Positions 1,308 to 39,649 are shown, counted from the first letter of the stretch. The stretch: 64,000 nt of DNA from Bacteroidota bacterium (GCA_027491085.1 JAIXWW010000021.1:66732-130731), one strand, 5' to 3'. Notes: a model not told the origin generated them from the letters alone. Program-made: numbers and translations.

Positions 1308-1928
1308 TTACACAAGCGAAATTTTATTTCTACCAAGTTTTACCAAACCCTCGTCCTCCATCTGTTTCAGCAAACGCGAAACCACCACACGTGCTGTTCC
1401 TAGTTCGGTTGATAATTGTTCATGTGTAACATACAAGGTTTGGCTTTTTGTCATTTCACATTTTCTTTTTATAAAGTTCAAAAGTCTTTCATCTAATTTT
1501 TTAAAAGCAATTGCATTTACCACTTCCAATAATTCTTCAAAGCGTTTGTGATACAAGCGAAAAATATAATCTAACCACTCTGGAAATTCCTTAATGAGCA
1601 AACTTACCTTGTCAATTGGAATAAAAAGTATTTCTGTTTCTTCCTCAGCAATGGCTTTTACTTTGCTTGTATCGTGGTGTAAACCTCCTAAGAATGACAT
1701 GATACAACTTTCACCTGCCTTAATATAGTACAATAAAATTTCTCTACCGTCTTCGTCAGTTCGCATTACCCTGATGCTGCCAGTGGTTACAATGGGTATA
1801 GCTTTTATGTATGCGTTTTCATTAAGTATTGTTTCGCCTTCTGCAAAGGTTTTAGAGAAACCAATCTCAGCAAGTTTTTCTCTTATAAAGGGGGAAGATT
1901 TGAATTCTATTATTTCGCTTAATTCCAT
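1308..1928 (-). CDS. Crp/Fnr family transcriptional regulator
   Basis: 206 aa. It has an N-terminal cNMP-binding beta-barrel (GESCIMSFL) and a C-terminal HTH (THEQLSTELGTARVVVSRLLKQMEDEGLV). Confidence 0.8.
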   Translation of the reverse strand: MELSEIIEFKSSPFIREKLAEIGFSKTFAEGETILNENAYIKAIPIVTTGSIRVMRTDEDGREILLYYIKAGESCIMSFLGGLHHDTSKVKAIAEEETEILFIPIDKVSLLIKEFPEWLDYIFRLYHKRFEELLEVVNAIAFKKLDERLLNFIKRKCEMTKSQTLYVTHEQLSTELGTARVVVSRLLKQMEDEGLVKLGRNKISLV

Positions 1929-2041
1929 TTTACAAAGTTAGGTTTTAATTTAGCTGATGTGAGTCGTATTCTAAATCAGTAGTATTTATGTTTGGCAAAA
2001 TTAAATATGCTGTAATTAGGATAGGTACAAGTGAATACTTT

Positions 2042-2635
2042 TTAGTATTTATCTTTAATTACCTTGGTGTCTGAAAGCTTGTCATGAAAGCCATTTGAAT
2101 CAAACAAAAACGAAAAACCATCAAGCGGAATAATGCGGCAAAATGTTCTTCTAAAAACATCATAAGTTTTGGGTTTACTGCCATCCTTCATAATAACATG
2201 GGTTTTTGTTATAAACTTTCCAATTGTTTTTTGCAATGAGGTTTCCATAAAAACATAGTAACTAAAATAGCTTATGGCTAGCATTAAATAAATATGAACA
2301 GTAGTTAAGCTAATCTCATAAATAATAACAAAGTATGCTATAAAATAACTAAGAAATGAATTAAGTATCAAAACCATAAACAAATCAATAACAAAATTTA
2401 AAAACCTCACCAATGTGGTAGGAGTGGCTTTATCTATAGTTGTTTTAACTTCCTGCTTATCTAGTAAATCAGTTTTTATGGTATCAATTTGTGTTAGGTT
2501 TAAATTTCGTATTTTTATCTCCTCTTCAGCTGCTGCTATAGCCAAAGGTTGGTAACCATCTCTATCCACAAAAACCATTTTAACAAGCTCCTCGTCCGAT
2601 TTTTTTTGTACTAAATTTTTATAGTCTATATTCAT
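2042..2635 (-). CDS. RDD family membrane protein
   Basis: 197 aa with three hydrophobic segments. The pattern GKFITKTHVIMKDGSKPKTYDVFRRTF matches the RDD-family motif G..l.g..v...dG...s......R. Confidence 0.55.
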   Translation of the reverse strand: MNIDYKNLVQKKSDEELVKMVFVDRDGYQPLAIAAAEEEIKIRNLNLTQIDTIKTDLLDKQEVKTTIDKATPTTLVRFLNFVIDLFMVLILNSFLSYFIAYFVIIYEISLTTVHIYLMLAISYFSYYVFMETSLQKTIGKFITKTHVIMKDGSKPKTYDVFRRTFCRIIPLDGFSFLFDSNGFHDKLSDTKVIKDKY

Positions 2636-2885
2636 TTTTTATCCTTTTATTGCTTTAGCCTTTAAAAGTATAAAAATATTTTTAAACCAGTAATTAGTTT
2701 TTATAAAACTCAGAATTGTAGTAACCATTTTATCGGTTTTGGATAGCTTCTATTAAGCAATATAAGTTTGCAATTACCGGTATTTAACTATTGACACTCA
2801 CAGCACCTAAATAAAACTAATTGTCTGAACTATGATTTGTTTGATTAAGTTGATTGACATGATTGAAGCTTAAATATTAGTGAAT

Positions 2886-2913
2886 GTCATTGCGATCGTA
2901 GAGAAGCAATCTC
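2886..2913. repeat. Short dispersed palindromic element of the gtcattgcga...agcaatct family
   Basis: The sequence is gtcattgcgatcgtagagaagcaatctc. Related copies lie at 11581-11607 (reverse), 40903-40928 and 40957-40984 (reverse). Confidence 0.7.
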
Positions 2914-2937
2914 AAGCAAGCAGATTTTTTTTCGCCC

Positions 2938-2969
2938 AGACCTGACAGGTTTCAAAACCTATCAGGTCT
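2938..2969. repeat. Hairpin element of the agacctgacagg...cctatcaggtct family
   Basis: An imperfect palindrome, agacctgacaggtttcaaaacctatcaggtct. A second copy lies at 32691-32729. Confidence 0.65.
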
Positions 2970-3287
2970 TTCGATAAATTAGGAAACATCACATCAATCC
3001 CACCTATACTTCATAGTAAAAAAGTATTCAAAAAACTAAGTACTTTGAGCTAAGTACTAAAAACTAAATCACGCAAAGCGTGAAAAAACTAAGAACTGCA
3101 AACTAATTTCCAAAAGCTCCATAGGAGCGAAACTATTGTAACAAAACAAATAAACCCCACTAACCCAAAGCCCCATAGGGGCGATACTTTTTCTTGTTGG
3201 TGATGCTTTACTAAACACCATATGGGCAAAAATCCAGAGACTTATTGAAATACTCACTCGAAAGATACGAGCGAGTGCCTGTAAAAA

Positions 3288-4199
3288 TCATTCATTACTT
3301 CCTAAAAAATAAATCGGGTGCAAAGGCAATAGATTTTTTTGCTCATCAGACAATTTAGAATAATACTCTTGCCAAAGTGAAATTAATCGGTCAAAATCAA
3401 TTAATTCTATGTGTTCTCTTGACTCTCTAGCTTCTTTTATTGCAGGTTTAGAAAAATTACCCGAGGTTACAAAAATACCTACGTCTGAATTTCGTTTTAA
3501 AGTACCTGCTAATTTTTGTACTTCATCAGAGGATACAGAATCTTTTGGCCTATGTTTTACTTGTACAATTATTCTAGGTTGTCTTGTTCCCAATGGGTCA
3601 GTATATGCAATAATATCTATGCCCCCATCTGGTCCTCGTTTAGCCACTTCGGATATGTGATAACCCATAGCTCGTAACAATTCAGCAACTAAGTCTTGAA
3701 ATTCATAAGGGTTTTTATCAATAATAAAATTTCTAATTTCGTTGAATGCAATATCTTCATATTGACTAATAATAGATTTTTGAACTTGACTACTATTCTC
3801 TTCCGTGAAATTTTCAATATCATCTTCTACGGTTTCCTTTTTTCTTTTTTTATCCCATTCTCTATATAGTTTGGTTGCATTATTAAGTAGTTTTTCACTT
3901 CCAAGTTTTATAGCTTTTTCACCTTCATCTGTAAGTATCCAAGTGCCTTTATTTTTTCTTAAATAACCTGCCTTTATACAATCTATAGTATAAAAATGCA
4001 TAATAGATTCCCATCTAATATAACCAGTTTTACCATATCTATGACTTTCATATTCGTCAAATATTATGGTTTCTCTTATTTTGTCTACAACATCCTTACC
4101 TCGCATTTCTCCTCCAGCTTCTTTAAGGATATTAAACGCAGCAAAAATTGTTTTCTCTGCTATTTGTTGTGATTTCGATTTATTATTTTCTTTTTTCAT
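3288..4199 (-). CDS. Mrr-like restriction endonuclease (Mrr_N winged helix plus Mrr_cat PD-(D/E)xK)
   Basis: 303 aa. The C-terminal catalytic pattern is GPDGGIDIIAY...RIIVQVKHR (D...Q-x-K). The start overlaps the upstream stop as ATGA at 4196-4199. Confidence 0.8.
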   Translation of the reverse strand: MKKENNKSKSQQIAEKTIFAAFNILKEAGGEMRGKDVVDKIRETIIFDEYESHRYGKTGYIRWESIMHFYTIDCIKAGYLRKNKGTWILTDEGEKAIKLGSEKLLNNATKLYREWDKKRKKETVEDDIENFTEENSSQVQKSIISQYEDIAFNEIRNFIIDKNPYEFQDLVAELLRAMGYHISEVAKRGPDGGIDIIAYTDPLGTRQPRIIVQVKHRPKDSVSSDEVQKLAGTLKRNSDVGIFVTSGNFSKPAIKEARESREHIELIDFDRLISLWQEYYSKLSDEQKNLLPLHPIYFLGSNE

Positions 4200-7072
4200 T
4201 TCTTCTTTTTTACTTTATCTTTAGTAAATAAATTGGCAGTATATTTTTCATAAAGTTCAAATAAAAATTCCATTCTACTAGCTTCACTTGTAAATGCTTG
4301 TGGTCTATATGCTAAATCAACTGCTTTGTCAAGTTCGTTATGCGCTTTTGATAATGCTGGTGGCATTGTCAAAGGGTCGTAAAGGTCGGCAAATGAACTT
4401 TCAGGGAATTGCGCTCTAATATCCAAAACTTTTTGTGCCGCTGTTTCAATAACTTTAACTTGTTTTTCGTTTGGATTTTCAGGCCAAGGATAATTATTGT
4501 AAACAATGGTATTTGAATATCTAAACCTACTTTCAAGTCTGCCACAGGTGTACTTTACCCAGGCCATATGCATGATTGATGTTAATACACCAAAATGAAA
4601 AAGTGTTATGTTTTCAATAAAACTAACATCAGTGTTAATAATCGTATTTGAGCTCTCGTAACCAATTGGTATATATTTTCTTCTTTCAGAAGACACGCTT
4701 GGAATAATAAGAAAATTAGTTTTGGGTTGTCTTATTTCAGTAAATAAACTTGGAAATTCAGCAAATTTCCTTGTAGTTGCTCTAGTGCTTTGTAATCGAT
4801 AATTTTTGACTTTACCAATTCTATTTAATACCTCAGGTAGAGATTTAATTTTGATTGGTTCTGCATTCTGTAACCAAAGACAGAAACGTTTTTTATTATT
4901 AATAAAATCATCTGAACCCATGTATTTCATGATATAATTAATAGCATTGGGTTCTTTTTTTATAAACTCATCCTTCTCCTCAATTGATTTAAAAATAAGA
5001 TTCCCTCCATCATTTGCCATATTACCCCTGTTTATTTCAGGAACTCGACATATTGGTTTATTGGTTTTAGTAATAAAAATATCCTTAGCATCAACTAAAT
5101 AAGGATTGATATTTTTTGCTTTTATTTCATGCGCTTCGCCTTTAATATCTTCATATTCAAATATACTTTTATTATTAGTATCAAAGTTAGCAAATCCAAT
5201 TATTACACAATATACAGCGGCATTTCCTTTTGCTTGATTACTCCATTTGAATGTACGGTGTGCAAAGTGTATCTTTATATTGTATTTGTTCAACATTTGC
5301 CCCCACAAAATGCTTGTTTGTTCTCCTTGAACTATCGAATTTGTTGACACAAATGCTACTTTGGTGTTTGTACCTTGAATGTATTTTGCTGCTTTTATGT
5401 ACCAACCTGTTACATAGTCTAAAACACCACTTCCGTCAATTCCTTCAAACTGCTTAACAATTTGGTCGCGCTGAGTTTGTTTCATTATTTTAGAACCAAT
5501 AAAAGGAGGATTGCCAATAATATAATTGTATTTCTCTTCTTCAATTCCTCTCCCTTTACGTTGTTGAATTTTTACATTAGGAGCATGAATTTCTAGTTGA
5601 TATTTTTCTTTAGGCTCATTTAATATATGAGTTATTTCTACTTCATCAGCGTATAGTTTTTTTACACCCGTTGTCTCACTTTCAAAAGTATGCCAGTTTA
5701 TTTCCAATGCATCACCATGCACTATGGTAGCAGCTTTTTTTAGCGGTAGCCTTGCAAAGTATTGTCCAAATTCATTGCTTATTTGCATGTTCATTTGGTG
5801 GTCAATTAACCACATGGCTACTTCGGCTATTCGAGCAGGAAACTCCTCATATTCTATTCCATAAAACTGGTCAATATTCAACCAAATTATGTTTTCAATA
5901 CTTGTTACTTGTTGGTTTTTATATTGGTTTCGCAATATTTCAAGCTCCAATAATCGCAACTCTCTATAAGTTATAACTAAAAAGTTACCACAACCACAAG
6001 CAGGGTCTAAAAATGTTAAATCGCGTAGCTTTTTATGAAATTCAGGAAGTTTATTTCTGTTGTCTTTTATTTTGTTAAAATCATTCCAAAGTTCATCTAA
6101 GAAAAGGGGTTTTATCAATTTTAAAATATTAGTTTCACTGGTATAATGTGCTCCTAAGTTTCTGCGTTCTTTCGGGTTCATTACACTTTGAAACATAGAA
6201 CCAAAAATAGCAGGCGAAATTTTACTCCAATCTAAATAACAACATTCTAATAAGGCAGTTCGCATTTTATTGTCAAAACTTGCCATTGGTAATATTTCTT
6301 CAAATAGTTTTCCATTTACATAGGCAAAATCGGCTAGTTGTTCATCAAGATTTTTAAAACGATTTTCTTTGGGTGTATTCAACACTTGAAACAACTCTTG
6401 CAATTTGGCAGCTAAATCACTTCCATCTTCGTTTGTTCGTTGGTCTATATAATCTTGAAATTGTTGTTTATTAAAAATGGTAGTGTCTTCGGCAAACAAA
6501 CAAAATAGAATACGAACCAAGTAAACCTCTAAAGCATGTCCGGTATAGCCTATTTCTTCTAGCCTATCATGCAGTTTACCCATTAGTTCGGCTGCTTTTA
6601 TATTGGCAGGGTCTTGTTCTTTGTAAACCTTTTTTTGATAGCCTAACAGATAACTAAACTGATCAACATTTTTTACCAATTCATTCAGTTTAAATTCAAC
6701 TATTTTATCTTCTTCAAGGTCGTAAAGTCTAAAGTTTTCAAAGTCACAAATCAATATAAATTTAGGTAACTCGTGTTGCTTTAAACCATGTGTATAATCA
6801 ATAGCTTGTTGATATGCTTTATCAAGGTTTTTACCCTTGCTTTTCATTTCAACTAAAATGGTTCCTTTCCAAAGCAGGTCTATATAACCATCCTTTTCAT
6901 CAAGCTTTTTTACCCTATGTTCAAAGGTTGAAACACGTTTACTACTTATGCCAAACACATTAAAGAACTCCACTAAAAATGGTTTAGCATCAGCTTCTTC
7001 ATTGCTAGTATCAGCCCATTCCTTCGAAAACTTTAATGCCCTATCTTTTATTTCGTTCCAACCTAATGCCAT
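4196..7072 (-). CDS. MmeI-family type IIL restriction-modification enzyme (N-terminal nuclease, gamma-class N6-adenine methyltransferase, TRD)
   Basis: 958 aa. The N-terminal IDLLWKGTILVEMK gives D-X9-E-X-K, the spacing of the MmeI nuclease motif. Methyltransferase motif I is LDPACGCGNFL and motif IV is IIGNPPF. A long C-terminal region follows. Confidence 0.8.
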   Translation of the reverse strand: MALGWNEIKDRALKFSKEWADTSNEEADAKPFLVEFFNVFGISSKRVSTFEHRVKKLDEKDGYIDLLWKGTILVEMKSKGKNLDKAYQQAIDYTHGLKQHELPKFILICDFENFRLYDLEEDKIVEFKLNELVKNVDQFSYLLGYQKKVYKEQDPANIKAAELMGKLHDRLEEIGYTGHALEVYLVRILFCLFAEDTTIFNKQQFQDYIDQRTNEDGSDLAAKLQELFQVLNTPKENRFKNLDEQLADFAYVNGKLFEEILPMASFDNKMRTALLECCYLDWSKISPAIFGSMFQSVMNPKERRNLGAHYTSETNILKLIKPLFLDELWNDFNKIKDNRNKLPEFHKKLRDLTFLDPACGCGNFLVITYRELRLLELEILRNQYKNQQVTSIENIIWLNIDQFYGIEYEEFPARIAEVAMWLIDHQMNMQISNEFGQYFARLPLKKAATIVHGDALEINWHTFESETTGVKKLYADEVEITHILNEPKEKYQLEIHAPNVKIQQRKGRGIEEEKYNYIIGNPPFIGSKIMKQTQRDQIVKQFEGIDGSGVLDYVTGWYIKAAKYIQGTNTKVAFVSTNSIVQGEQTSILWGQMLNKYNIKIHFAHRTFKWSNQAKGNAAVYCVIIGFANFDTNNKSIFEYEDIKGEAHEIKAKNINPYLVDAKDIFITKTNKPICRVPEINRGNMANDGGNLIFKSIEEKDEFIKKEPNAINYIMKYMGSDDFINNKKRFCLWLQNAEPIKIKSLPEVLNRIGKVKNYRLQSTRATTRKFAEFPSLFTEIRQPKTNFLIIPSVSSERRKYIPIGYESSNTIINTDVSFIENITLFHFGVLTSIMHMAWVKYTCGRLESRFRYSNTIVYNNYPWPENPNEKQVKVIETAAQKVLDIRAQFPESSFADLYDPLTMPPALSKAHNELDKAVDLAYRPQAFTSEASRMEFLFELYEKYTANLFTKDKVKKKK

Positions 7073-7175
7073 TTATTAAACTTTGTATGCTATTTTACTT
7101 GTGCCAAATATATTTACTTTGATTATTTAATTTAAAAATAATTTTAGCCATTAATTTACTAAAACCATCCTTTTT

Positions 7176-7220
7176 ATAAACACCACAAGCTACCTTTGGG
7201 GTAGCTTGTGGTGTGTTTAT
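7176..7220 (-). terminator. Strong stem-loop between the 875-aa gene and the RM operon
   Basis: aaacaccacaagctacc-tttg-gggtagcttgtggtgtgttt forms a stem of about 17 bp. The T-tract on the minus strand is weak. Confidence 0.5.
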
Positions 7221-7271
7221 TATATATTAAGAACAGATACTATTTGGGGTTGATAAAAGTATATCTATTTA

Positions 7272-9899
7272 TTAGTCTACATCATTGTTTAACTTTGGTT
7301 TTGGTAAAACAACCCTTTTTAGTTCTGCTGTTGTTGGATGTTTTGAGCCAAATTCGTGTTTAGCAAAACACATTTTTGCTAACAATGAAATTTCTCTTCT
7401 TTCTTCTTCTGTAGTAAAATCATAGTTATACTTTGCTAATAAAGCATTGTGAACATCATACAAGTAAAAGGAATTTTTATTTAGACTTACTATATAATCG
7501 TGAATATGCTTGCGCCATTCCCTTGGTCTGCAAAAAACTAATAGTAAAGCAATTTTATGTTTGCTATTTGTGTCTTTTGTATTTGCAAAATGCTCATATA
7601 GTAGAGGTGCTAATTTTGGAGAGAATATGTCGTCCTTGAAAAAGCCAACAACATTTGTCATATTAACTTGAATTATGAGGTTAAGTCTTGTTTCAAAGGT
7701 ATCACCAAAATCGCCCTGAAGCGTAAAACTATGTCCGTCAAAACCTGCCTGTCCTTTGTCTGCAAGTATTGGAGTTAATGCAAGTAAAACATTTGATAGT
7801 TGTTCCCAACTTCTCAAAATTTCATTAAAAATTACACGTTTGGCTTCTGGATTAACGTAGTCACTATTTCTCAATGCTCTTGAAGAGGCTCTAATGTTTT
7901 GCATCAGATTATGTAAGGAATATTCAGCGAAAAACTTGTGAATACTTTGATTGTATGGGCGTATCTGGTTATAACTCCTATCTGCGTGCTGGTCTTTTAT
8001 ATCTTCTGGTAATCCTGAACTTAAAACATTTTCACTTAATTGATTTTGTGCTGTTTGAATCTGTTCTTCTGTTGGTTGCCAACGTATTTGTGAAAAAATA
8101 TTCATATCACCTGTAAGCCTTACTTTAGAATTAACTATATCACAGGTTTCCTTGATATCTTTTGTCAATATCTCAAGAGCATCAATTTTATTTCTATCAA
8201 TGCCTGTATAAAACTCAATTATTTCAGGGAATGATATGTATTTCTTTGAGGTAAAAATGTAATCTGCAAATTCTTTATCGTTATCCATCCGTTTGGCAGC
8301 AAAGTAGTAAACCCAAAATGAAGACCTAAAGCAATAATCAAATTCTTGTCTTACAATTATGTGATTCAATACCAAAACATCAAAAACAACATCAACATCC
8401 AAATCAATAAGTTTTTCTTTGCAGAATGATTTGAGTTCTTCAATAAATATATCTCTTGAAAAATTATACTTATCTGTTCTAATCATCTTTTCACTATAAC
8501 GACCTAAAACATACTCGCAATCTTTCAAATCGGGTTTTATTTTATACCTTGGAATGCCGTCCATATTAAACAATACAAATAAAACCTTCTCAATCATATC
8601 TGTTCTGTTAATAGGACTTTCGTCAAAGTATTTTTCAGAAACCTTTAACAAGGTCAAACAGTTCATAGGTGTTCTGTGGATATTTAGAACATCTAAGTCT
8701 GAAACAACTTTTGTCAGAACATTATCTTCAATGCCGATTTCTTTAACTCTATTGTATTCTGCAACAACCTTTCTGATTTGGGTTCTCGGAAGTGCCAATA
8801 AAAAAAGTTGTTTAAACTCTCTTTCAATTTTTATATCATTTGGCTCTTTTAAGAATTTTGCATCTTCAATTGTATGCATCAAGATTATTGGAATGTTTCT
8901 GTATGAGTCAGATAAGTTTTTTAATTTTTTGAAACTGTCGAGTTCATAGCTATTCCACGAATCAAGAATAATTGCTTTCACATCTGTAATTTTTAAGCCG
9001 AAAGATTCTGTTTCTCTAACTACAGCATTGTGAATGTTGTGGGATTTAGTATTGTGCGAATCAAGATACAACCAAAAGTTACCCCTTTTCCAAGATTGAA
9101 GCACCATATGGTGAGCCAAGGAGGTTAGCCCAAACTGAGGTGGAGCATTAAAGACTATTGATTCGGGATTGTTTATTATTTCTATTACATCAATTCGTTT
9201 AGTATAGTTTTCGTCTGGATTTTGTGAAATTTCATTCGTATTACTTATAACTGGGTCAACCCAAATAATCGGTTGTGAACTAAATGCTTGTAATGCAATA
9301 TCCAAATTTGATTTGAATTTCGCTCTTAGAACTTCATATTGAACATTTGCTTTTGTTGAACCCGTTTTTTCTTTGCTATAAAATTTTACAAAGTAGTCTG
9401 TTAAATGTGTCCGGAATGTGCTTTCAAAATCACTAACTCCATTGTATGTCCAATAATAACCGCCTAATTCAGCAATCTTTTCTTTGAACTTGTTTACTTT
9501 ATTAAAATCATCAGAGTTTAATTCGCTCTTCTTTACTGGTGCATCATTAAAGTAGAACATTATATCCAAACTTTCTTTGTTCTTTAATCGCTGATAGGCA
9601 TTATTAAACTCTTCTTCCGTCCCTGAACCTGCAACCTTTGTCTCAGTGCCAAATTTATTGTTCATTATACCAACAAACAAGTCATAATCGTTTCCTAGTT
9701 GTTCGCTAATAGTCGCTTGACTGTATTCACTTGAAAAACTTGGCCTGGTATTACGTTCCCACATTCTTTCTTCTATACTGAATCCAAAACTCTCACCAAG
9801 TCCCTTGTTCAATTCATTGAATATTTTCAAACAGATTTGTCTTTCTTCTTTAGTGTCACCTGGTGAAGCAACTAAACATCTATAAATTTTCTTTTCCAT
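7272..9899 (-). CDS. Uncharacterised 875-aa protein with three parts: a TIR/nucleoside 2-deoxyribosyltransferase-like (DUF4062-like) N-terminal domain, a P-loop-like core with degenerate Walker A, and a helical C-terminal region. Candidate STAND-type defence protein.
   Basis: It is a long uninterrupted ORF. N-terminal motifs are CLVASPGDTKEER, DLFVGIM and AGSGTEEEF, which resembles the D/SxGTxxE motif of the NDT/TIR-like Rossmannoid fold. The central IVFNAPPQFGLTSLA fits A-x4-G-[K to L]-T-S, and AIILDSW looks like a Walker B. About 450 aa of alpha-helical-looking tail follow. Confidence 0.85.
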   Translation of the reverse strand: MEKKIYRCLVASPGDTKEERQICLKIFNELNKGLGESFGFSIEERMWERNTRPSFSSEYSQATISEQLGNDYDLFVGIMNNKFGTETKVAGSGTEEEFNNAYQRLKNKESLDIMFYFNDAPVKKSELNSDDFNKVNKFKEKIAELGGYYWTYNGVSDFESTFRTHLTDYFVKFYSKEKTGSTKANVQYEVLRAKFKSNLDIALQAFSSQPIIWVDPVISNTNEISQNPDENYTKRIDVIEIINNPESIVFNAPPQFGLTSLAHHMVLQSWKRGNFWLYLDSHNTKSHNIHNAVVRETESFGLKITDVKAIILDSWNSYELDSFKKLKNLSDSYRNIPIILMHTIEDAKFLKEPNDIKIEREFKQLFLLALPRTQIRKVVAEYNRVKEIGIEDNVLTKVVSDLDVLNIHRTPMNCLTLLKVSEKYFDESPINRTDMIEKVLFVLFNMDGIPRYKIKPDLKDCEYVLGRYSEKMIRTDKYNFSRDIFIEELKSFCKEKLIDLDVDVVFDVLVLNHIIVRQEFDYCFRSSFWVYYFAAKRMDNDKEFADYIFTSKKYISFPEIIEFYTGIDRNKIDALEILTKDIKETCDIVNSKVRLTGDMNIFSQIRWQPTEEQIQTAQNQLSENVLSSGLPEDIKDQHADRSYNQIRPYNQSIHKFFAEYSLHNLMQNIRASSRALRNSDYVNPEAKRVIFNEILRSWEQLSNVLLALTPILADKGQAGFDGHSFTLQGDFGDTFETRLNLIIQVNMTNVVGFFKDDIFSPKLAPLLYEHFANTKDTNSKHKIALLLVFCRPREWRKHIHDYIVSLNKNSFYLYDVHNALLAKYNYDFTTEEERREISLLAKMCFAKHEFGSKHPTTAELKRVVLPKPKLNNDVD

Positions 9900-9940
9900 T
9901 TTATATTAGAGTACTCTTAGTTTCATCATTTGATTTTACC

Positions 9941-9983
9941 AAAAAAAATCCCCTCAAGCTACTCTGCTTGAGAGGATTTTTAT
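9941..9983 (-). terminator. Rho-independent terminator after the 297-aa gene
   Basis: aatcccctcaagc-tactct-gcttgagaggatt is flanked by an A8 run on plus, which reads as a T-run on minus. Confidence 0.75.
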
Positions 9984-9991
9984 TGTGAGTT

Positions 9992-10885
9992 TTACGCTAT
10001 CTTTAAACTAATTTCTAGTTCGGTAATTTTGCCTTGTTCTATGGTGGCAGTTAATTTTTCGGTTTGGTAGCCTTCCGCTTCTATCCTAATAGTATAAGTG
10101 CCAGGGCGCATTTTGTAAAGCTCGCATAAGCCATCTTGGTCTGCATCGTCTTTTTTATCGCTACCTTCTACATAAGCCCAAGCAGTAGTAATAGGTTCGT
10201 TGGTTTCTTTATTGGTAACTGCTATGGTTACACCCGTTTTGCGCACTGCGGCATCGTTTATTACCTTAGTAGCCATAAATGCATTGGCAAAGGTTGGTTC
10301 ATCAGTAGCATTTACAGTTAAATCGCTAATTATTACCAAGCTGGCATCAGCCTCATTAAACAATGTTTTAGTTTCAGCATTTAAGCCTTTGTTATTTTTT
10401 AATGCGCTTTGGGTAGTGCCTAAGCTAGCTTGGTAATCGTTTACCAATTGCCTAGCTTGGTTTATAGTTGTCGGAAGTACATTTAATTCTCCCATGGCTT
10501 TATAATTTGTTTCTATTTGGCCTATTACATTATTAGCCTTGGCATAGCGCTCTGCATCGGTTAAGCGCGTTAAATCTGTTTTGGTAATATCAAATAATGT
10601 AATTAAAGCCAAATTTTTTGTATCCTTAGCCCATACCAAAGCTACCCTTGCTAGTTTTACCAAGGCATCTACCATGCTTTGTTCTAACTGTGCATTTCCA
10701 CTAGTTATGCCATTTGTGCCGCTACTCAAGTTAGTGTGTAGCTCATTAATTCTAGTTACTAATCCATTAAACTTCAAAACTTCGGCATTCAAGCGGCTAA
10801 AGTTTTCATAAACACTTTTATTTAGAGCAAGTGTTTGTTGTACAGCTAAGTACATGTTCATTTTTGCAATTTGTTGTTTGTTCAT
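9992..10885 (-). CDS. Hypothetical protein with a helical N-terminal region and a C-terminal carboxypeptidase-regulatory-like beta-sandwich
   Basis: 297 aa. The C-terminus GTYTIRIEAEGYQTEKLTATIEQGKITELEISL is typical of CarboxypepD_reg-like domains. No signal peptide is evident. Confidence 0.7.
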   Translation of the reverse strand: MNKQQIAKMNMYLAVQQTLALNKSVYENFSRLNAEVLKFNGLVTRINELHTNLSSGTNGITSGNAQLEQSMVDALVKLARVALVWAKDTKNLALITLFDITKTDLTRLTDAERYAKANNVIGQIETNYKAMGELNVLPTTINQARQLVNDYQASLGTTQSALKNNKGLNAETKTLFNEADASLVIISDLTVNATDEPTFANAFMATKVINDAAVRKTGVTIAVTNKETNEPITTAWAYVEGSDKKDDADQDGLCELYKMRPGTYTIRIEAEGYQTEKLTATIEQGKITELEISLKIA

Positions 10886-11037
10886 GTTAAATTTATTTTA
10901 TGAACTTAATCAGTTGTCAATCATTATGCCAACTTGTTTTTTAATTTCAGCAATAAAAAGCAGTTAATTTTTATGGTGGTTTTATTAATTTAAAATGTAG
11001 TATACTAATTTAAATAACAGTTCCTCTTTTTATTATG

Positions 11038-11290
11038 CCAAAAAGTCTATTGTTTAGTTTTAAAATACATTGCTTAACCCTAAAACCTCATTTTTCTATT
11101 TTAAAACCGTATTTTTTAAAACTAATAGCTCATTGCTTTAACTTAACATGTCATTGTTTCACTTTAATATGACATTGTTTCGCCTCAAAACCTCATTGTT
11201 GTATTTTAAAACCCTATTGTTTGAGTTTAAAAGTCCATTTTGCTACCTTAAAACCTCATTGTTTTACCTTGAAACCCTATTTTTAAAAAT
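11038..11290. repeat. Tandem array of 12 degenerate 20-23-bp units, consensus yTTAAAACCTCATTGTTTnn
   Basis: The units were read by eye, for example ctaaaacctcatttttctat, ctcaaaacctcattgttgtat, tttaaaaccctattgtttgag and cttaaaacctcattgtttta. No spacers separate them, and no ORF of 60 aa or more lies in any frame. Confidence 0.8.
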
Positions 11291-11385
11291 TAAGTTCAAG
11301 TTTTTGACTAATGCCTAAACGAAAAATCGTTAATGGAAAAGATTTTTGCTAACCATGGAAGATGCCTCCGGCATGACTGGGCGAG

Positions 11386-11815
11386 AATAAGCAATGGACA
11401 ATAAGCAATAAGCAATGGGCAATTAGTAATTAGCAATGTAATATCAGCAAAAGATCAATGGCCGTTCTCCCGAAAGCTTTCGGGATTAGCCAACGGAAAA
11501 AGTCAATAAGCAATAGGCAAGTGGGAAATGAGAATTAGGAATTGAGCAATAGCGAACAACAAACATTGAATAATTTCAGTGAGATTGCTTCGTGCCTCGC
11601 AATGACGAACAACAAACAAGCAACTCGTAACTCGTAACAATCAACATGGAACATCGAACAACGAACAACGAACAACGAGCAACGAACAACGAACAAACCA
11701 TCCAACAATATAACAATTCAACAATTCAACAATTAACCAGTTAACCAATTAACCCCACAACAACGAATATCGAATATCGAACATCGAACAACGATCAACG
11801 AACACCGAACATCGG
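11386..11815. repeat. Mosaic of period-7/8 simple-sequence blocks
   Basis: Runs include aagcaat/gggcaat/tagcaat, (cgaacaa)n, (caacaatt)3 and cgaatat/cgaacat. Embedded in them are the palindrome cccgaaagctttcggg and the gattgcttcgtgcctcgcaatgac element. The block lies directly upstream of recG. Confidence 0.85.
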
Positions 11816-11842
11816 AAATAAAAAAAATCACTTATCATTGCA

Positions 11843-13957
11843 ATGAACTACATGCAAGGCAATTCGTTTTTACAAACTAAAATAGAATATTTAAAAGGAG
11901 TAGGTGCAGCAAAGGCCGAACTTTTGCAAAAGGAATACAATATTTTTTCCTTTAACGACTTGCTGTACTATTTTCCTTACAGGCATATCGATAGGAGTAA
12001 AACCTATCAAATCAGTCAGCTTGACGATACCATGCAATACATTCAGCTAAAAGGAACTGTAAGTAATTTGCGTACCATTGGTCAAGGTGCTGGAGCTAGG
12101 TTAGTAGCCAACTTTAGCGATGGAACAGGCAGCATTGAACTCATTTGGTTTCAAGGCCAAAAATGGATAAGAGATAGTTTATTGGCAGGTAAAGTATATG
12201 TGGTTTTTGGTAAACTAACCGAGTTTAACCGTACCTTTAGCATGGTTCATCCAAGTATGGAAGACCCTGCTTTGGTTAATGAAAAGCTGTATTTAAAAAT
12301 GATGCCGCTTTATAATGCCAGCGAAAAGGCTAAAAAACGAGGAGTTGATACCAAGTTTTTAATGAAGTTAACCAATACTTTGTTAACCGATGCTCGCTTG
12401 CAAATAGAGGAAAATTTACCTGATTATTTGGTAGCTAAACACAAGCTCATGAGCCGCAAACAAGCCATGATGCAAATACATTTTCCCGAATCGTTTCAAC
12501 TGTTACATGCGGCTGAGCAACGCCTAAAGTTTGAAGAATTATTTTTTAATCAATTGCGCATATTGCGTTATAAATTAAAACGCCATACTGTATTTAACGG
12601 AATAAAAATTGCCAAAATTGGCGATTTGTTCAACGGATTTTATAACCATCAATTACCTTTTGAATTAACCAATGCCCAAAAGCGGGTTTTAAAAGAAATA
12701 AGGGTAGATATGGGCAGCGGTAAACAAATGAACCGTTTGGTGCAAGGCGATGTAGGCAGTGGAAAAACAGTTGTTGCCCTTATGAGTATGCTCATGGCTA
12801 TTGATAATGGTTACCAAGCTACGCTCATGGCTCCAACCGAAATTTTAGCTAACCAACATTTTGAAACCATCAAAACTTTATTGGGCGATTTGCCGGTTAG
12901 GGTGGAGTTACTTACGGGTTCCAAAACCAAAAAGAACCGCAGGCCCATTCACGAAGGTTTAAAAAATGGCGAAATCCATATATTAATTGGTACACATGCA
13001 TTGATTGAAGATGCAGTGGAATTTAGAAATATTGGCATAGCCATTATTGATGAACAACACCGATTTGGTGTAGAACAAAGGGCTAAACTTTGGAAAAAAA
13101 ATGAGCATCCACCACATATTTTGGTAATGACAGCTACACCCATTCCACGTACTTTAGCCATGACCCTTTATGGCGATTTAGATACCAGTATGATAGACGA
13201 ATTGCCTGCAGGACGTAAACCTATAAAAACGATTCATAAATACGATAATAACCGTTTAGAAGTTTATGGTTTTATAAGAAACGAAATTAATAAAGGAAGA
13301 CAAGTGTATATAGTTTATCCTTTGATAGCCGAAAGCGAAAAGTTAGATTTTAAAAACCTAGCCGAAGGATATGAAAGTATTTGTAGGGAATTCCCTTTGC
13401 CAACTTATGCAGTAAGCATGGTTCATGGAAAAATGAAACCAGCCGAAAAAGACTTTGAAATGCAGCGTTTTGTAAAAGGGGAAACTAATATTATGGTGGC
13501 TACTACGGTAATAGAAGTGGGAGTAAATGTGCCCAATGCCAGTGTAATGGTAATAGAAAGTGCGCAACGTTTTGGCTTATCACAATTGCATCAGTTACGC
13601 GGCCGAGTGGGTAGGGGAGCAGAACAAAGTTATTGTTTATTAATGACCGATTTTAAAATTAGTCAAGATGGAAAGCTGCGCATGAAAACAATGGTAGAAA
13701 CCAACGATGGATTTAAAATTAGTGAAGTTGATTTACAACTGCGTGGTCCGGGCGATATGGAAGGAACCATGCAAAGTGGAGTATTAGATTTACGAATTGC
13801 AAGCATTATTGACGATAAAGAAATACTAGAAGCAGCCCGAAAAGAGGCCCAGTTAATACTTGAAAATGATAACACATTACAAAAACCCGAAAATGCTATT
13901 TTAAACCAATACCTCATGCTATATAGAAAAACAAACAAATGGGGAGCGATAAGTTAG
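11843..13957 (+). CDS. recG: ATP-dependent DNA helicase RecG
   Basis: 704 aa. It has a wedge/OB N-terminus, Walker A GDVGSGKT, DEQH box IIDEQHRFGV, and QLHQLRGRVGRG. Confidence 0.95.
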   Translation: MNYMQGNSFLQTKIEYLKGVGAAKAELLQKEYNIFSFNDLLYYFPYRHIDRSKTYQISQLDDTMQYIQLKGTVSNLRTIGQGAGARLVANFSDGTGSIELIWFQGQKWIRDSLLAGKVYVVFGKLTEFNRTFSMVHPSMEDPALVNEKLYLKMMPLYNASEKAKKRGVDTKFLMKLTNTLLTDARLQIEENLPDYLVAKHKLMSRKQAMMQIHFPESFQLLHAAEQRLKFEELFFNQLRILRYKLKRHTVFNGIKIAKIGDLFNGFYNHQLPFELTNAQKRVLKEIRVDMGSGKQMNRLVQGDVGSGKTVVALMSMLMAIDNGYQATLMAPTEILANQHFETIKTLLGDLPVRVELLTGSKTKKNRRPIHEGLKNGEIHILIGTHALIEDAVEFRNIGIAIIDEQHRFGVEQRAKLWKKNEHPPHILVMTATPIPRTLAMTLYGDLDTSMIDELPAGRKPIKTIHKYDNNRLEVYGFIRNEINKGRQVYIVYPLIAESEKLDFKNLAEGYESICREFPLPTYAVSMVHGKMKPAEKDFEMQRFVKGETNIMVATTVIEVGVNVPNASVMVIESAQRFGLSQLHQLRGRVGRGAEQSYCLLMTDFKISQDGKLRMKTMVETNDGFKISEVDLQLRGPGDMEGTMQSGVLDLRIASIIDDKEILEAARKEAQLILENDNTLQKPENAILNQYLMLYRKTNKWGAIS

Positions 13958-33940: not shown

Positions 33941-34250
33941 ATTTATATCAATGTTTTTATAAGGTATCATTTTTTGTTCGAGTAAATATTTTCAATCCTT
34001 ATATTTTACCAAGTGTAATATTTCGTTTGATACTTTTCTGCCTTGAGTAAATTGAAATTAGGGGTTTCATTTTTACAAGTAATAGTTTCAATTGTTGTAA
34101 TTCAGTTTTTAATTTTAAAAATAACAACCTTAATTTTTACCATTTAAGATTAATTTTTTACCCCTAATGTATCATTTTATTTTTTAAGTAACTTATTGAA
34201 AATCAACTGCGTAAAAGGTTCATAATTTTTAAAATATCAAACATAATATT

Positions 34251-34865
34251 ATGAAAAACTTATTATTCATTGCAGTACTTTTTATTTCAGGTTTAGTTAG
34301 AGCCTCAGAAATAAATCACCAATTTACACCTAACAAAAAAATTATTACCAAAGTAAATGTAGCCGTGTATTTTGTTACTCAAAACCCTGAAAATTACGAT
34401 TGGGTAAAATGGGATTTTGGTGATGGACAGATAGAATATTCAATTAATCCTGCACATAAATATGCTAAATCAGGAATTTATGATGTAAAAATGATTGTAT
34501 CCAAAGGTGCTCAGGTAGATACTATTTGTAAAATAGGCATGATAACAGTAATACCTAATACCAATACTTTAGAACAGGGAGATTATGCTTACGATTTAGA
34601 CTTAAGCCAAGAAACTTTATTAAATAAACAAGCTGCCGATATTAGTAACGACCTTGATAATAACTTACTAAGAATAGCTAATTATAACAATGATAATGGA
34701 CACGTAGAAATTCGAAATATCAATGGCGATTTAGTTTATCATACCATTTTGGAAAGTAACGAAGAAATTAAAAACATTGAAACTAACATTTTAAATAGTG
34801 GTACGTACATAGTTTATTTAACATTAAAAAACAAAACTATAGTAGCTAAATATTGTAAACCATAA
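34251..34865 (+). CDS. PKD domain protein with a probable T9SS C-terminal domain
   Basis: 204 aa with a signal peptide. It has a PKD signature (WDFGDGQIEYSINPAHKYAKSGIYDVKMIV) and the C-terminus GTYIVYLTLKNKTIVAKYCKP. Confidence 0.6.
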   Translation: MKNLLFIAVLFISGLVRASEINHQFTPNKKIITKVNVAVYFVTQNPENYDWVKWDFGDGQIEYSINPAHKYAKSGIYDVKMIVSKGAQVDTICKIGMITVIPNTNTLEQGDYAYDLDLSQETLLNKQAADISNDLDNNLLRIANYNNDNGHVEIRNINGDLVYHTILESNEEIKNIETNILNSGTYIVYLTLKNKTIVAKYCKP

Positions 34866-34880
34866 AAGAAATGTTACTAT

Positions 34881-34917
34881 AAAAAGCCCAATTGAATCGC
34901 TTCAATTGGGCTTTTTT
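34881..34917. terminator. Bidirectional rho-independent terminator between convergent genes
   Basis: aaaaagcccaattgaa-tcgc-ttcaattgggctttttt. Confidence 0.85.
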
Positions 34918-34935
34918 ATGGTTTTAGCATCTAAA

Positions 34936-35997
34936 TTACAATTTAGTAATCCAACCAAATTTATCTTCAACTTTTGATGTTTGAATTTCGCCCAAGGTGT
35001 CATATAGCCAATTTGATACTTTTCTTCCTTCTGCAGGAGGTAGCTCAAATCGTTCGTTTTTATAGGCAATAGTTTCAATTTTAGCAATTAATGCAGCGGT
35101 ACCAGTTCCAAATGCATCTAGCAATTTACCTGCTCTTGCAGCAGTAGCTATTTCTTCAATATTTATATGTCGTTCTTCAACATTGTAATTTGCATCACGT
35201 AATAATTTTATACAACTATCGCGTGTTACACCTTTTAGAATATTTCCATCTAATGCAGGAGTTAAAACGGTATAATCATCCATTACAAAAAACAAATTCG
35301 TTGTGCCTGATTCTTCTACATATTTATGTTCGCGTCCATCGGTCCAAATGATTTGATCAAAACCTTCTTTTTTTGCCTCCATTGTTGGACGCATACTAAT
35401 TCCATAATTTCCTGCGGCTTTAGCAGCTCCAGCCATGCCATCAAATGCACGTGTATATTTTTCTTCTACTTTTACTTTTATTGGTTTTGGATAATAGCTA
35501 TTTACTGGGCAACAAAATATAATAAAGGTGTAATTATTACTTGGTCTCACACCTACAAAATCATCAGTAGCAAACATAAAAGGACGCAAGTACAATGCAC
35601 TGCCAACTTTGGTTGGAATCCAAACTTGATCCATTTTTACCAATTCTGATAAACCGGTCATAAATAATGCTTCAGGAATAGTAGGCATTCCCATTCTCTC
35701 TGCCGAAAGGTTAAAACGCTCAAAATTGGCTAATGGACGAAAAAGTTGAGGTCTTCCATTTTCATCTTTAAAAGCTTTCATGCCTTCAAAAATTGCCTGA
35801 CCATAATGTAAACTAGATAAAGCAGGAGAAAAATTAATATTTCCGTAAGGTAAAATTTCGCCAGTTTTCCATGCACCGTCCTCATAATCAACTCTAAACA
35901 TGTGGTCGGAGAAAATTTTTCCAAATTCAATGTTATTAAAATCACAAAGATTGATTCTTGATTGAGTGTTTTTGTTAATTTTGATGCTTATTGTCAT
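34936..35997 (-). CDS. ilvE: Branched-chain amino acid aminotransferase
   Basis: 353 aa. Motifs are LHYGQAIFEGMKAF, YLRPF, AAKAAGNY and EESGTTNLFFV. Confidence 0.9.
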   Translation of the reverse strand: MTISIKINKNTQSRINLCDFNNIEFGKIFSDHMFRVDYEDGAWKTGEILPYGNINFSPALSSLHYGQAIFEGMKAFKDENGRPQLFRPLANFERFNLSAERMGMPTIPEALFMTGLSELVKMDQVWIPTKVGSALYLRPFMFATDDFVGVRPSNNYTFIIFCCPVNSYYPKPIKVKVEEKYTRAFDGMAGAAKAAGNYGISMRPTMEAKKEGFDQIIWTDGREHKYVEESGTTNLFFVMDDYTVLTPALDGNILKGVTRDSCIKLLRDANYNVEERHINIEEIATAARAGKLLDAFGTGTAALIAKIETIAYKNERFELPPAEGRKVSNWLYDTLGEIQTSKVEDKFGWITKL

Positions 35998-36016
35998 CTG
36001 TAATTTAATTTAAAAA

Positions 36017-36487
36017 ATGAGTGAATTTTTAAAAGTTGAAAATCCATTTATCGAAACTCTGTTCGATGAATTTTTCGCGGTCAAAGAAAAACAAAATTCT
36101 ATACAATACAAGTTTACCGGAACTAACGAGCAACGCTTTGTTTTATTGATAGATAAAGTGCTAAATGATAATGAAATGAATTTACTGAATAATATCATTC
36201 AGGCTGGTTTGAAACTTAATTTGGAAGAAATGGCACTCTTAAACATGAATCAACAAGAAGAAGGTGCCAGTATTAGCAACTTAATTATTGGGTTAAAACC
36301 CTTAAAAATAATTGTTTGGGGCTGTAATGATTGGATAAAAAAAGAAGGTTGGGATATTCCTTTACATCAAATAGCAAATGTGCGTAGTACAAAAATTTTA
36401 AAAGCAGATGAGTTAATCAGTTATGAAAATAATAAAGATTTAAAACTGCAACTTTGGAACTTGGGAATTAAAAAAATGATAGGATAA
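36017..36487 (+). CDS. Hypothetical protein
   Basis: 156 aa. It shares 1 nt with the rdgB start (TAATG). No motif was recognised. Confidence 0.5.
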   Translation: MSEFLKVENPFIETLFDEFFAVKEKQNSIQYKFTGTNEQRFVLLIDKVLNDNEMNLLNNIIQAGLKLNLEEMALLNMNQQEEGASISNLIIGLKPLKIIVWGCNDWIKKEGWDIPLHQIANVRSTKILKADELISYENNKDLKLQLWNLGIKKMIG

Positions 36488-37065
36488 TGGAGTTAATATT
36501 TGCTAGCCATAACGAAAATAAAGTAACAGAAATTGCAGCTTTAATAGGAAGCGGTTACTCTGTTAAATCATTATCTGCAATTGGTTTTAATAATGAAATA
36601 GTTGAAAATGGAAGTACTTTAACTGAAAATGCATTGATAAAAGCTAGGACTATATACCAAGCAACCAATAAAAATTGTTTTGCAGACGATACAGGTTTGT
36701 TGGTAGAAGCACTTAATAACGAACCTGGAGTATTTAGTGCACGTTATGCTGGAAACCAAAAAAATGATCATGATAACATGAATTTGTTACTTGAGAATTT
36801 GAAAAATAAATCAAATAGAAATGCCAATTTCACAACGGTTATTGCATTAATTATGGATGGCAAGGAATATTTATTTGAAGGGAAATTATTTGGAGAAATT
36901 ATTACTGAAAAAATTGGTTCCAATGGTTTTGGCTATGATCCAATTTTCAAACCTAAAGACTTTAATATTTCTTTGGCTCAAATGGATTTAAATAAAAAAA
37001 ATACCATAAGTCATAGGGCTTTGGCATTTAAAAAAATGATTGACTTTCTGCATAAAATTAAATAA
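36487..37065 (+). CDS. rdgB: Non-canonical purine NTP pyrophosphatase (RdgB/HAM1 family)
   Basis: 192 aa. Motifs are FASHNENKVTEI, FADDTGL, PGVFSARYAG, GFGYDPIF and ISHRA. Confidence 0.85.
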   Translation: MELIFASHNENKVTEIAALIGSGYSVKSLSAIGFNNEIVENGSTLTENALIKARTIYQATNKNCFADDTGLLVEALNNEPGVFSARYAGNQKNDHDNMNLLLENLKNKSNRNANFTTVIALIMDGKEYLFEGKLFGEIITEKIGSNGFGYDPIFKPKDFNISLAQMDLNKKNTISHRALAFKKMIDFLHKIK

Positions 37066-37205
37066 TTAATGTTTTTTGCATATTTGTAAATATTGTGTAT
37101 ATATTTGTTTTACAAAATTTAAAGCTGTTTAAAACTATTGTTATTAGGGGTAGGTCAGAAAGATTAATTAATTAATTTAGTTGAGTTGTTTAATGTCAAT
37201 ATGTT

Positions 37206-39242: not shown

Positions 39243-39244
39243 AT

Positions 39245-39284
39245 AAAAACGCCATTTGCTTTGCAGTAAATGGCGTTTTTATTT
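39245..39284. terminator. Bidirectional rho-independent terminator
   Basis: aaaaacgccattt-gctttgcagt-aaatggcgttttt. Confidence 0.8.
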
Positions 39285-39297
39285 AACAACCTAGAAA

Positions 39298-39648
39298 TTA
39301 TTTTTTTTCTAATCTCATTTGGGTTAAATTATTTAAAACATCAGCATAAACACTGTCTAAATCTGCTGGTTCCTGAAGGTAAAAATCGTAATTTTCTGTA
39401 AACTGTTTTTCATTAATACCATTTTTTTTAAATACAAAATCATAATGCCAAAGCATTGATTTGTTTAAACTATCTGTAACTAAACCAATTTGGTTTACTC
39501 CAGCTTCCGCTATTTGTATATCGGTTAGAATAGCACTCATTTTTTTACGATCAAAAAATGGGTTTGGTTTTAAATTATTATTTTGATTACAAGCAAATGT
39601 TGTAATAACTAATGCAATTAATGCATATTTGTAAACTGATTTTATCAT
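39298..39648 (-). CDS. DUF4296-like lipoprotein
   Basis: The internal start MIKSVYKYALIALVITTFAC carries a lipobox, followed by MSAILTDIQIAEA. The longer tracked ORF would overlap the yggS-like gene. Confidence 0.5.
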   Translation of the reverse strand: MIKSVYKYALIALVITTFACNQNNNLKPNPFFDRKKMSAILTDIQIAEAGVNQIGLVTDSLNKSMLWHYDFVFKKNGINEKQFTENYDFYLQEPADLDSVYADVLNNLTQMRLEKK

Positions 39649-39649
39649 A

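Follow-up and report, generated by a model that had tools for sequence, protein, structure and literature searches.

A Stand-alone DUF4062-STAND Protein with a Lysine-less P-loop, Probably an Anti-phage Sensor, Encoded beside Restriction Genes in a Bacteroidota Genome

What does a long reading frame do that lies beside restriction genes and combines a putative nucleotide-processing head with a P-loop lacking its lysine? The question is raised by the open reading frame (ORF) 7272..9899 in a 64,000-nucleotide stretch of DNA from Bacteroidota bacterium (GCA_027491085.1 JAIXWW010000021.1:66732-130731), called the window below. A first-pass annotation, made from the sequence alone, had described an uncharacterized 875-residue protein and proposed a single-gene STAND-type defense system. 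The reading frame is present as described, with 875 codons, an ATG start at 9899 and a stop codon at 7272-7274; it lies on the minus strand, which had gone unmentioned. All motifs quoted at that stage were located in the translation: CLVASPGDTKEER at residues 8-20, DLFVGIM at 73-79, AGSGTEEEF at 90-98, IVFNAPPQFGLTSLA at 248-262, and AIILDSW at 309-315. Our analysis suggests that the ORF is probably a stand-alone Avs/NLR-like anti-phage sensor, which would kill or arrest the infected cell through the destruction of NAD+. The proposed effector-NTPase-sensor layout was recovered in the form of a DUF4062 head, a NACHT-like core, and a C-terminal domain in one polypeptide, with effectors swapped among relatives. 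The features of the ORF are as follows, with the basis of each assignment in parentheses.

7272..9899, minus strand: 875-residue ORF with DUF4062 domain, STAND-like core, and all-alpha C-terminal domain in one gene (translation, full-length homologs)
9375..9899, minus strand: residues 1-175, DUF4062 (TIR-like NADase) domain of five beta-alpha units (Pfam, PADLOC, DSSP of the model)
9606..9626, minus strand: residues 92-98, invariant acidic motif SGTEEEF (conservation in 70 sequences)
9255..9374, minus strand: residues 176-215, two long helices and a linker joining head to core, the "stalk" (model helices 155-177 and 182-203; PDC-S60 match to residue 199)
8790..9254, minus strand: residues 216-370, five-stranded NACHT/STAND-like nucleotide-binding domain (NBD) fold, with the lowest conservation in the core (Foldseek, hhalign, conservation)
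9123..9146, minus strand: residues 252-259, Walker-A-like loop APPQFGLT with Leu258 in place of Lys (alignment with GVKEAGKT)
8955..8975, minus strand: residues 309-315, Walker-B-like strand AIILDSW, Asp313 retained and second acidic residue absent (alignment, model)
8535..8789, minus strand: residues 371-455, helical domain 1 (HD1) including the near-invariant LNIHRTPxNCLTLL (model; motif also in a DS-8-like relative)
8280..8534, minus strand: residues 456-540, winged-helix-like small alpha/beta domain (WHD; nSTAND_NTPase4) (PF24406 at residues 478-534, model)
7275..8279, minus strand: residues 541-875, compact all-alpha C-terminal domain, presumed sensor (model, conservation)

The N-terminal head was identified by profile, sequence, and structure comparisons. 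The Pfam model PF13271 (DUF4062) matches residues 14-101 with 20.0 bits at a gathering cut-off of 24.7. Of 20 family members, 17 match the model at E values of 0.01 or less, the lowest being 3.4e-6; in one relative (L063) the match amounts to 63 bits, over the Pfam cut-off. The PADLOC model PDC-S60 aligns with residues 3-199 at an E value of 3.5e-49, covering model positions 2-200 of 906. A tblastn search with residues 5-182 retrieved annotated DUF4062 proteins on plasmids at E values of 1e-9 to 1e-13, and a plasmid homolog of the ORF carries the NCBI annotation DUF4062. In the AlphaFold2 (AF2) model, residues 4-152 form a flavodoxin-like five-stranded parallel beta-alpha fold, with five alternating strand-helix units assigned by DSSP, a predicted local distance difference test (pLDDT) score of 82-92, and the topology described for KpSwz. 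The N-terminus, earlier described as TIR/NDT-like, is by these matches a DUF4062 domain. Osinski et al. (2026) describe DUF4062 as a TIR-like NADase with kinship to the TIR and NDT domains; a role in phage defense has been shown for it, and two 2026 preprints report that its catalytic Glu is needed for abortive-infection defense in Swarozyc and Evangelion. A DUF4062 domain also precedes the NACHT domain in human TEP1, NWD1, NWD2, and NPHP3. In the present family, residues S92, G93, T94, E96, E97, and F98 are invariant across 70 sequences and stand at the C-terminal end of the PF13271 match. E97-F98 are likely the counterpart of the catalytic Glu-aromatic pair in DUF4062 NADases; the comparison with the catalytic Glu (E97 in KpSwz, E87-Y88 in Eva01) was made from motif descriptions.

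The fold of the core was derived from the AF2 model of the whole ORF (mean pLDDT 84.4, predicted template modeling score (pTM) 0.67). In a Foldseek search of the PDB with the whole model, NAIP/NLRC4, NLRP3, and NLRP9 ranked at the top (E values 2e-6 to 3e-5), followed by the AAA+ clamp loader RFC, ORC, and p97. The corresponding search of viral models returned matches to NLR-like and AAA+ proteins only, and a sequence-profile search of the PDB with a 70-sequence alignment gave no match under E 0.5. Foldseek, DSSP, and hhalign place a NACHT/STAND fold at residues ~216-540, with the NBD followed by a helical domain and a winged-helix-like domain. The Pfam model PF24406 (nSTAND_NTPase4) scores 26.3 bits against residues 478-534 (cut-off 27). 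Among 20 family members, 19 match it at E values no higher than 0.01, the lowest being 1.5e-8, and most homologs carry it as a precomputed annotation. Residues 212-540 are also matched by NCBIfam NF053861 (DS8_antiphage) at E 1e-12 and 46.6 bits, far under the equivalog cut-off of 790. DS-8 is an experimentally validated single-protein defense system, in which the Walker A mutation K375A abolishes defense.

Within the modeled NBD, the P-loop-like motif lies between strand 248-252 and helix 258-271, and ILDSW closes strand 307-315; in the model, these are the places that the Walker A and Walker B sites of a P-loop NTPase would occupy. For comparison at the level of single residues, the family profile was aligned by hhalign with the profile of a DS-8-like metallophosphoesterase of Klebsiella plasmid pNY3A, which has the canonical Walker A sequence GVKEAGKT (probability 98%, E 2.4e-13). 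In this alignment A252 falls on G415, G257 on G420, L258 on K421, T259 on T422, and D313 on the Walker B Asp. Because L258 is aligned with K421, the Walker A lysine is truly replaced by leucine, which bears out the P-loop spacing with Leu for Lys recognized at the outset. AIILDSW, which had been taken to resemble Walker B ~55 residues further on, was found 51 residues beyond this Leu, and its D313 pairs with the Walker B Asp of the relative. The residue after the Walker B Asp is Ser (DSW) in the lysine-less family and Asn in the DS-8-like protein. Across 20 homologs with identities as low as 54%, no variation occurs at Q255, F256, G257, T259, D313, S314, or W315; the motifs are thus conserved elements and no chance strings.

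The replacement extends far beyond the ORF. Of 70 full-length related genes from species-representative genomes, 69 have a lysine-less P-loop, with the consensus PPQ[FY]G[L/Q/S/A/M]T. Among the representatives of clusters at 50% identity, the Walker A Lys is absent in 110 of 111 scorable sequences, 97 of which carry Leu at the position. Two Lys-bearing exceptions were observed, L069 from an Alcanivoracaceae metagenome-assembled genome (MAG) (residue ~255) and P0170, with the loops SPPQFGKT and LPEFGKT and the DSW Walker B retained; they are possible reversions. The combination of a lysine-less P-loop with this effector had been noted as unfamiliar; the lysine-less core is peculiar neither to this ORF nor to its effector and is probably the ancestral state of a very large multi-effector family.

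Conservation relative to relatives with other effectors was determined for each domain. Identity is 32% in the NBD, where 3 of 155 columns are ≥95% identical, compared with 49% in HD1 (9 of 85 columns), 44% in the WHD (13 of 85), and 40% in the C-terminal domain (35 of 320). The least conserved NBD is the reverse of the pattern usual for a working NTPase and constitutes the main support for the label pseudo-NTPase. From the family-wide loss of the Walker A Lys, the apparent loss of a second acidic residue in Walker B, and this low conservation of the NBD, we infer that the core serves as a ligand-driven oligomerization scaffold that would hydrolyze no NTP and perhaps bind none. Two Avs proteins provide background: KpAvs8, a functional Avs and a precedent for the pseudo-NTPase reading, has degenerate Walker A and B motifs and has been interpreted as lacking ATPase activity, and the NBD of SeAvs7 works by a nucleotide-induced conformational change rather than by hydrolysis.

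The extent of the family was determined with several collections. A homolog search yielded at least 805 clusters at 90% identity; the best 120 clusters listed are nearly all full length and mostly from Bacteroidota. When 1.84 billion cluster representatives were searched with a profile, 1,582 clusters at 50% identity were obtained with E < 1e-30, and the best 150 of these matches all cover profile positions ~180-873. In contigs from one genome per species, 286 stretches encode relatives, many of which align only from residue ~175 on. The core (residues ~175-875) is a cross-phylum family that is near-uniformly lysine-less, and its N-terminal heads are exchanged: DUF4062, Metallophos, Trypsin_2, SEFIR/TIR_2, PNP_UDP_1, protein kinase, and DUF676 alpha/beta-hydrolase domains occur on the same core, as does an FAD/NAD Rossmann module. 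One core with swapped effectors is behavior typical of immune STAND proteins. Copies of the DUF4062 type outside Bacteroidota were found in Pseudomonas, Janthinobacterium, a gammaproteobacterial MAG, and Alcanivoracaceae. A tblastn search against 50,697 phage records gave no match and hence no evidence of prophage carriage.

Some members of the family deserve separate mention. Two of the heads are less usual for STAND defense proteins, namely the N-terminal FAD/NAD(P)-binding Rossmann module of P0128 (1182 residues) and the protein kinase domain of P0125 (925 residues). Two near-full-length tblastn matches, L017:9992-12599 (86% identity) and L024:10001-12607 (71% identity), have ORFs that extend only 149 and 175 residues from the start codon; these frameshifted or interrupted copies are either pseudogenes or assembly errors. 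In trypsin-headed relatives, a conserved ORF of ~100 residues lies directly upstream and overlaps the start codon (L048:9130-9432, L059:9160-9462, L061:9085-9387), and this subtype may be a two-gene system.

The C-terminal domain was modeled alone (residues 541-875) from an alignment of 85 diverse sequences. The model has a pLDDT of 91.8 and a pTM of 0.90 and presents a compact all-alpha domain with one beta-hairpin. A Foldseek search of the PDB with this domain gave no significant match (best E 5.7e-3 with a TM score of 0.15), and a vague armadillo/HEAT-like resemblance was rejected on these values. The tail had been described as helical and free of recognizable motifs; the all-alpha model agrees with this and matches nothing solved. 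The domain contains an invariant ALRNSDY motif at residues 675-681. A loop at residues 641-655 (~nt 7935-7979), close to the helix end with ALRNSDY, has a pLDDT <50 and is flanked by the invariant polar residues K635, D636, D640, Y643, Q645, Y649, and Q651. Its appearance suggests a conserved site for binding or regulation rather than a variable surface.

To place the gene in its surroundings, the following neighboring features are needed.

3288..7072, minus strand: MmeI-family type IIG restriction-modification (RM) gene and an overlapping Mrr_N/Mrr_cat gene, context outside the system (Pfam, PADLOC)
7180..7214, minus strand: terminator-like hairpin of the ORF itself, between the ORF and the MmeI-type gene (perfect 15-16 bp stem)
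9941..9975, minus strand: intrinsic terminator of the upstream gene 9992..10885, which shields the ORF from read-through (10-bp stem and T8)

The restriction operon reported beside the ORF was found downstream of it. The gene 4196..7072 on the minus strand encodes a complete protein of 958 residues with five MmeI Pfam domains and a score of 1198 bits on the PADLOC type IIG model, and it overlaps by 4 nt the gene 3288..4199 on the same strand, which encodes 303 residues with Mrr_N and Mrr_cat domains and also matches PADLOC PDC-S02. The pairing of a modification-generating MmeI-type enzyme with an Mrr-type nuclease is an unusual combination. As for the hairpins ascribed to the ORF on both sides, both exist, but only the downstream one belongs to the ORF. 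It starts ~60 nt beyond the stop codon and occurs once in the window, which ruled out a repeated repetitive extragenic palindromic (REP)-like element; 2 arm matches were reached in 0 of 100 shuffles. The upstream hairpin, a 10-bp stem at 9950-9975 followed by a T8 run on the coding minus strand, is the terminator of the gene 9992..10885. With terminator elements on both flanks, the ORF therefore looks insulated at both ends and appears monocistronic.

Over 2-9.5 kb the GC content is 0.30-0.33, slightly below the 0.37-0.385 of the recG region, which is weak evidence because GC is also low elsewhere in the window. No convincing direct repeats bounding an island were found in 1900-11900, and an Rfam scan of 1-22000 revealed nothing but a tRNA-Ser. 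On the far side of the upstream gene, the ~960-bp intergenic region 10886-11842 between a CarboxypepD_reg-like gene and a recG-like gene is dense in short tandem repeats, with 21-nt units at 11130-11281 and 7-nt units at 11386-11437 (AATAAGC), 11643-11696, and 11759-11814 (AACATCG / GAACAAC); the region has no Rfam match.

The search for a conserved partner gene was performed as an all-against-all BLAST of 338 neighbors from 58 loci. No neighbor family recurred beyond 3 loci; the cluster that reached this number, the largest across loci, belonged to the trypsin-headed subtype, and the idea of a partner was dropped. Comparison of the flanks with ~90 related loci likewise revealed no synteny; even orthologs in other genomes that are 88-89% identical have flanking sequences different from those in the window. 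The ORF is a single-gene, mobile unit. Ten genomic contexts of homologs, including the window, were inspected; defense genes are adjacent in four of them, and insertion sequence (IS) or toxin-antitoxin genes in two more. One homolog adjoins a PvuRts1I/SRA enzyme, a Pedobacter homolog lies in an island with integrase, HEPN, SMEK, GmrSD, and resolvase genes, another context contains four IS copies, and yet another has an IS110 together with ParE and PIN genes. The homolog L090 on the plasmid NZ_CP041688.1 of Chryseobacterium sp. SNU WT5 is located within a type I RM operon (record 34028-45552). There, the order HsdM, HsdS ... HsdR is interrupted by a cassette in which the DUF4062-STAND homolog is accompanied by a nucleotidyltransferase, an S-4TM pore-forming effector, and a DUF4145 protein; together they form a compact defense island inside the RM locus. 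When 107 immediate neighbors from 27 loci were run through PADLOC, assorted RM, AbiE, Hhe, NERD-UvrD, and GajB-like matches were obtained, a purely descriptive result. The picture is that of a single gene, as the first-pass annotation had proposed, in a variable and often defense-rich context: a recurrent partner is lacking, and several homologs have RM or defense neighbors.

How might such a protein act? By analogy with Avs proteins, Swarozyc, and NLRs, the resting protein would be monomeric or autoinhibited through its C-terminal domain and core. A conserved phage-derived trigger, most likely a protein, could then bind the C-terminal domain and free the core, which would oligomerize and gather the DUF4062 heads. 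The clustered heads may in turn hydrolyze NAD+ and so abort the infection. Avs proteins bind conserved phage proteins and then oligomerize, and Swarozyc is switched on through assembly with the phage portal.

Several observations weigh against the proposed anti-phage sensor. Support for the family consists of sequences and models, and the anti-phage role, the NADase activity, the oligomerization, and the trigger are all proposed by analogy. The Pfam scores of the ORF itself fall just under gathering for both DUF4062 (20.0 versus 24.7) and nSTAND_NTPase4 (26.3 versus 27 bits), and the putative equivalence of E97 to the catalytic Glu of KpSwz and Eva01 was drawn from motif descriptions. T259, G257, and D313 are conserved, which is compatible with nucleotide binding without hydrolysis. 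About half of the ten contexts have no recognizable defense neighbor, four of them being without obvious defense genes. Finally, the C-terminal domain is short (~335 residues), has no repeat array, and is strongly conserved, which suits the recognition of a conserved target and a non-immune ligand sensor alike. The most direct competitor keeps both the architecture and the defense role and makes the core nucleotide-dependent, with the QFG-L-T loop binding ATP/dATP or another nucleotide as a switch without hydrolysis. In its favor, Q255, F256, G257, T259, and D313 vary little or not at all between phyla, as in a constrained loop rather than one in free decay, and the nucleotide-induced change in SeAvs7 offers a precedent. 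However, Lys is the main phosphate contact in P-loop proteins, the K375A variant of DS-8 loses defense, the NBD is the least conserved domain of the core, and a hydrophobic Leu occupies the Lys position in 97 of 111 scorable representatives. We consider this version unlikely.

A smaller share of probability falls to a non-immune function, that is, a regulated NAD(P)+/nucleotide hydrolase or signaling switch with a housekeeping or stress role that lies near restriction genes by chance. Several homologs do stand among ordinary metabolic genes without defense neighbors, the phage collection contained no match, and the C-terminal domain is highly conserved and not diversified. The patchy cross-phylum distribution speaks against such a role, as does the lack of shared synteny even between orthologs that are 88-89% identical; moreover, the core carries an effector set typical of conflict systems, some copies reside inside RM/defense islands and on plasmids, and the validated relatives DS-8, Swarozyc, and Evangelion are all defense proteins. 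We rate a non-immune role as improbable. That the ORF is a functional part of a three-gene system with the adjacent MmeI/Mrr locus is suggested by its position on the same strand and immediately next to it, but a strong hairpin and ~200 bp separate the ORF from the MmeI-type gene, and an MmeI or Mrr neighbor is conserved in 0 of 58 related loci, so that we regard a joint system as very improbable. The least credible of the explanations is a decaying, functionless STAND gene with an inactivated NTPase. The loss of the Walker A Lys and the interrupted frames of the related loci L017 and L024 would fit such decay, whereas the 875-residue frame is intact, there are >800 homolog clusters (90% identity), of which the best 120 listed are nearly all full length, the lysine-less motif is conserved across phyla, and HD1, the WHD, and the C-terminal domain are strongly conserved; such conservation contradicts decay.

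If the ORF is indeed an anti-phage sensor, the DUF4062/NIR NADase, an immune effector recognized only recently, would join the effectors of bacterial STAND/Avs proteins in Bacteroidota, a phylum under-sampled experimentally, and >1,000 sequence clusters would have an NLR-like core that works without the canonical ATP-binding lysine. Models of STAND/NLR activation in animals, plants, and bacteria center on nucleotide exchange. A clade that does without such exchange and has at least seven interchangeable effectors would be convenient for asking what the nucleotide contributes, and the orphan C-terminal domain could reveal a new module for trigger recognition. More speculatively, and less likely than not in our view, a large NLR-like clade may have abandoned nucleotide binding altogether, either as a pseudo-NTPase that oligomerizes on ligand alone or with the QFGLT loop re-tasked to a non-ATP ligand. 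In that event the family would offer a natural means of testing whether STAND/NLR activation can do without the nucleotide switch, and the C-terminal domain, an orphan in the PDB, would represent a new sensor type directed at a highly conserved trigger. Should the inference fail, the gene nonetheless illustrates cleanly how effectors are exchanged on a conserved scaffold. We found no literature description of a huge, uniformly lysine-less NACHT-like clade with many effectors and an orphan all-alpha end, the 589 clades of the 2026 Nature STAND survey being uncompared; the Aravind-group papers searched contain no discussion of 'nSTAND4' in their main text.

Among the known systems, the Avs/bNACHT proteins share with the ORF the sequence of effector, NACHT-like NBD-HD1-WHD core, and C-terminal sensor, the single-gene organization, and the swapping of effectors; several homologs of the ORF also adjoin defense genes or mobile elements, contexts that are frequent for Avs/bNACHT proteins. 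In contrast to them, the ORF family is devoid of the Walker A Lys, apparently also of a second acidic residue in Walker B, and has its NBD as the least conserved core domain. The sensors differ as well, that of the ORF being a compact all-alpha domain of ~335 residues with no solved relative, whereas Avs/bNACHT proteins have a long TPR-like, WD40, or FGE-sulfatase-type array. Degenerate Walker A and B motifs in a functional Avs are also seen in KpAvs8. There, the degeneracy is a property of particular homologs, EcAvs8 having been contrasted with KpAvs8, whereas in the present case it is probably the ancestral state of a whole cross-phylum family.

DS-8 (NF053861) is likewise a single-protein system with a homologous NBD-HD1-WHD core. 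DS-8-like proteins share the motifs LNI(H/P)RTP and (F/Y)YTG with the ORF, and those members of the lysine-less family that bear a metallophosphatase head are similar to DS-8 in their general layout. In DS-8 itself, the metallophosphatase head is combined with a canonical Walker A that includes the essential K375, in contrast to the DUF4062 head and missing Lys of the ORF; the C-terminal regions are unmatched, the hidden Markov model match ending near position 686 of 994. Membership of the ORF in DS-8 was rejected, given 46.6 versus 790 bits, a match confined to residues 212-540, another head, and no Lys. In PDC-S60, the first ~200 model positions match residues 3-199 of the ORF and represent the same head-plus-stalk module, whereas the remaining ~700 of 906 positions are unmatched and belong to another body. 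With only model positions 2-200 of 906 matching, an assignment to PDC-S60, on which no literature was found, was also rejected.

Swarozyc, Evangelion, and the 'NIR' proteins have, like the ORF, a DUF4062 TIR-like head and, behind it, helices; a conserved acidic motif, catalytic in those proteins and likely so in the ORF, lies in the head. The output of Swarozyc and Evangelion is NAD+ depletion and abortive infection, with a phage component acting via the C-terminal region, and by analogy the same would be expected for the ORF. According to the two preprints, these proteins consist of DUF4062 and a short auxiliary region without an NTPase module; the ORF adds a core and a C-terminal domain of ~700 residues. 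It was not classed with Swarozyc/Evangelion on account of these ~700 residues of STAND-like core and C-terminal domain after the head. The September 2026 'NIR' preprint mentions STAND and Avs, and some overlap with the present family is possible. The order of DUF4062 directly N-terminal to a NACHT-type STAND module is shared with TEP1, NWD1, NWD2, NPHP3, and bacterial TEP1-like proteins. Their NACHT domain is described as an ATPase and their sensors are WD40 or TPR arrays, with additional TROVE and vWA domains in TEP1, whereas the core of the ORF belongs to an nSTAND4-type lineage, is lysine-less, and is linked to another sensor. Since DUF4062-NACHT proteins are known in eukaryotes and among the bacterial TEP1-like proteins, and the NIR preprint mentions STAND/Avs, the pairing of a DUF4062 head with a STAND core is probably not new. 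The ORF is best regarded as a variant within a known anti-phage class rather than as a new kind of system.

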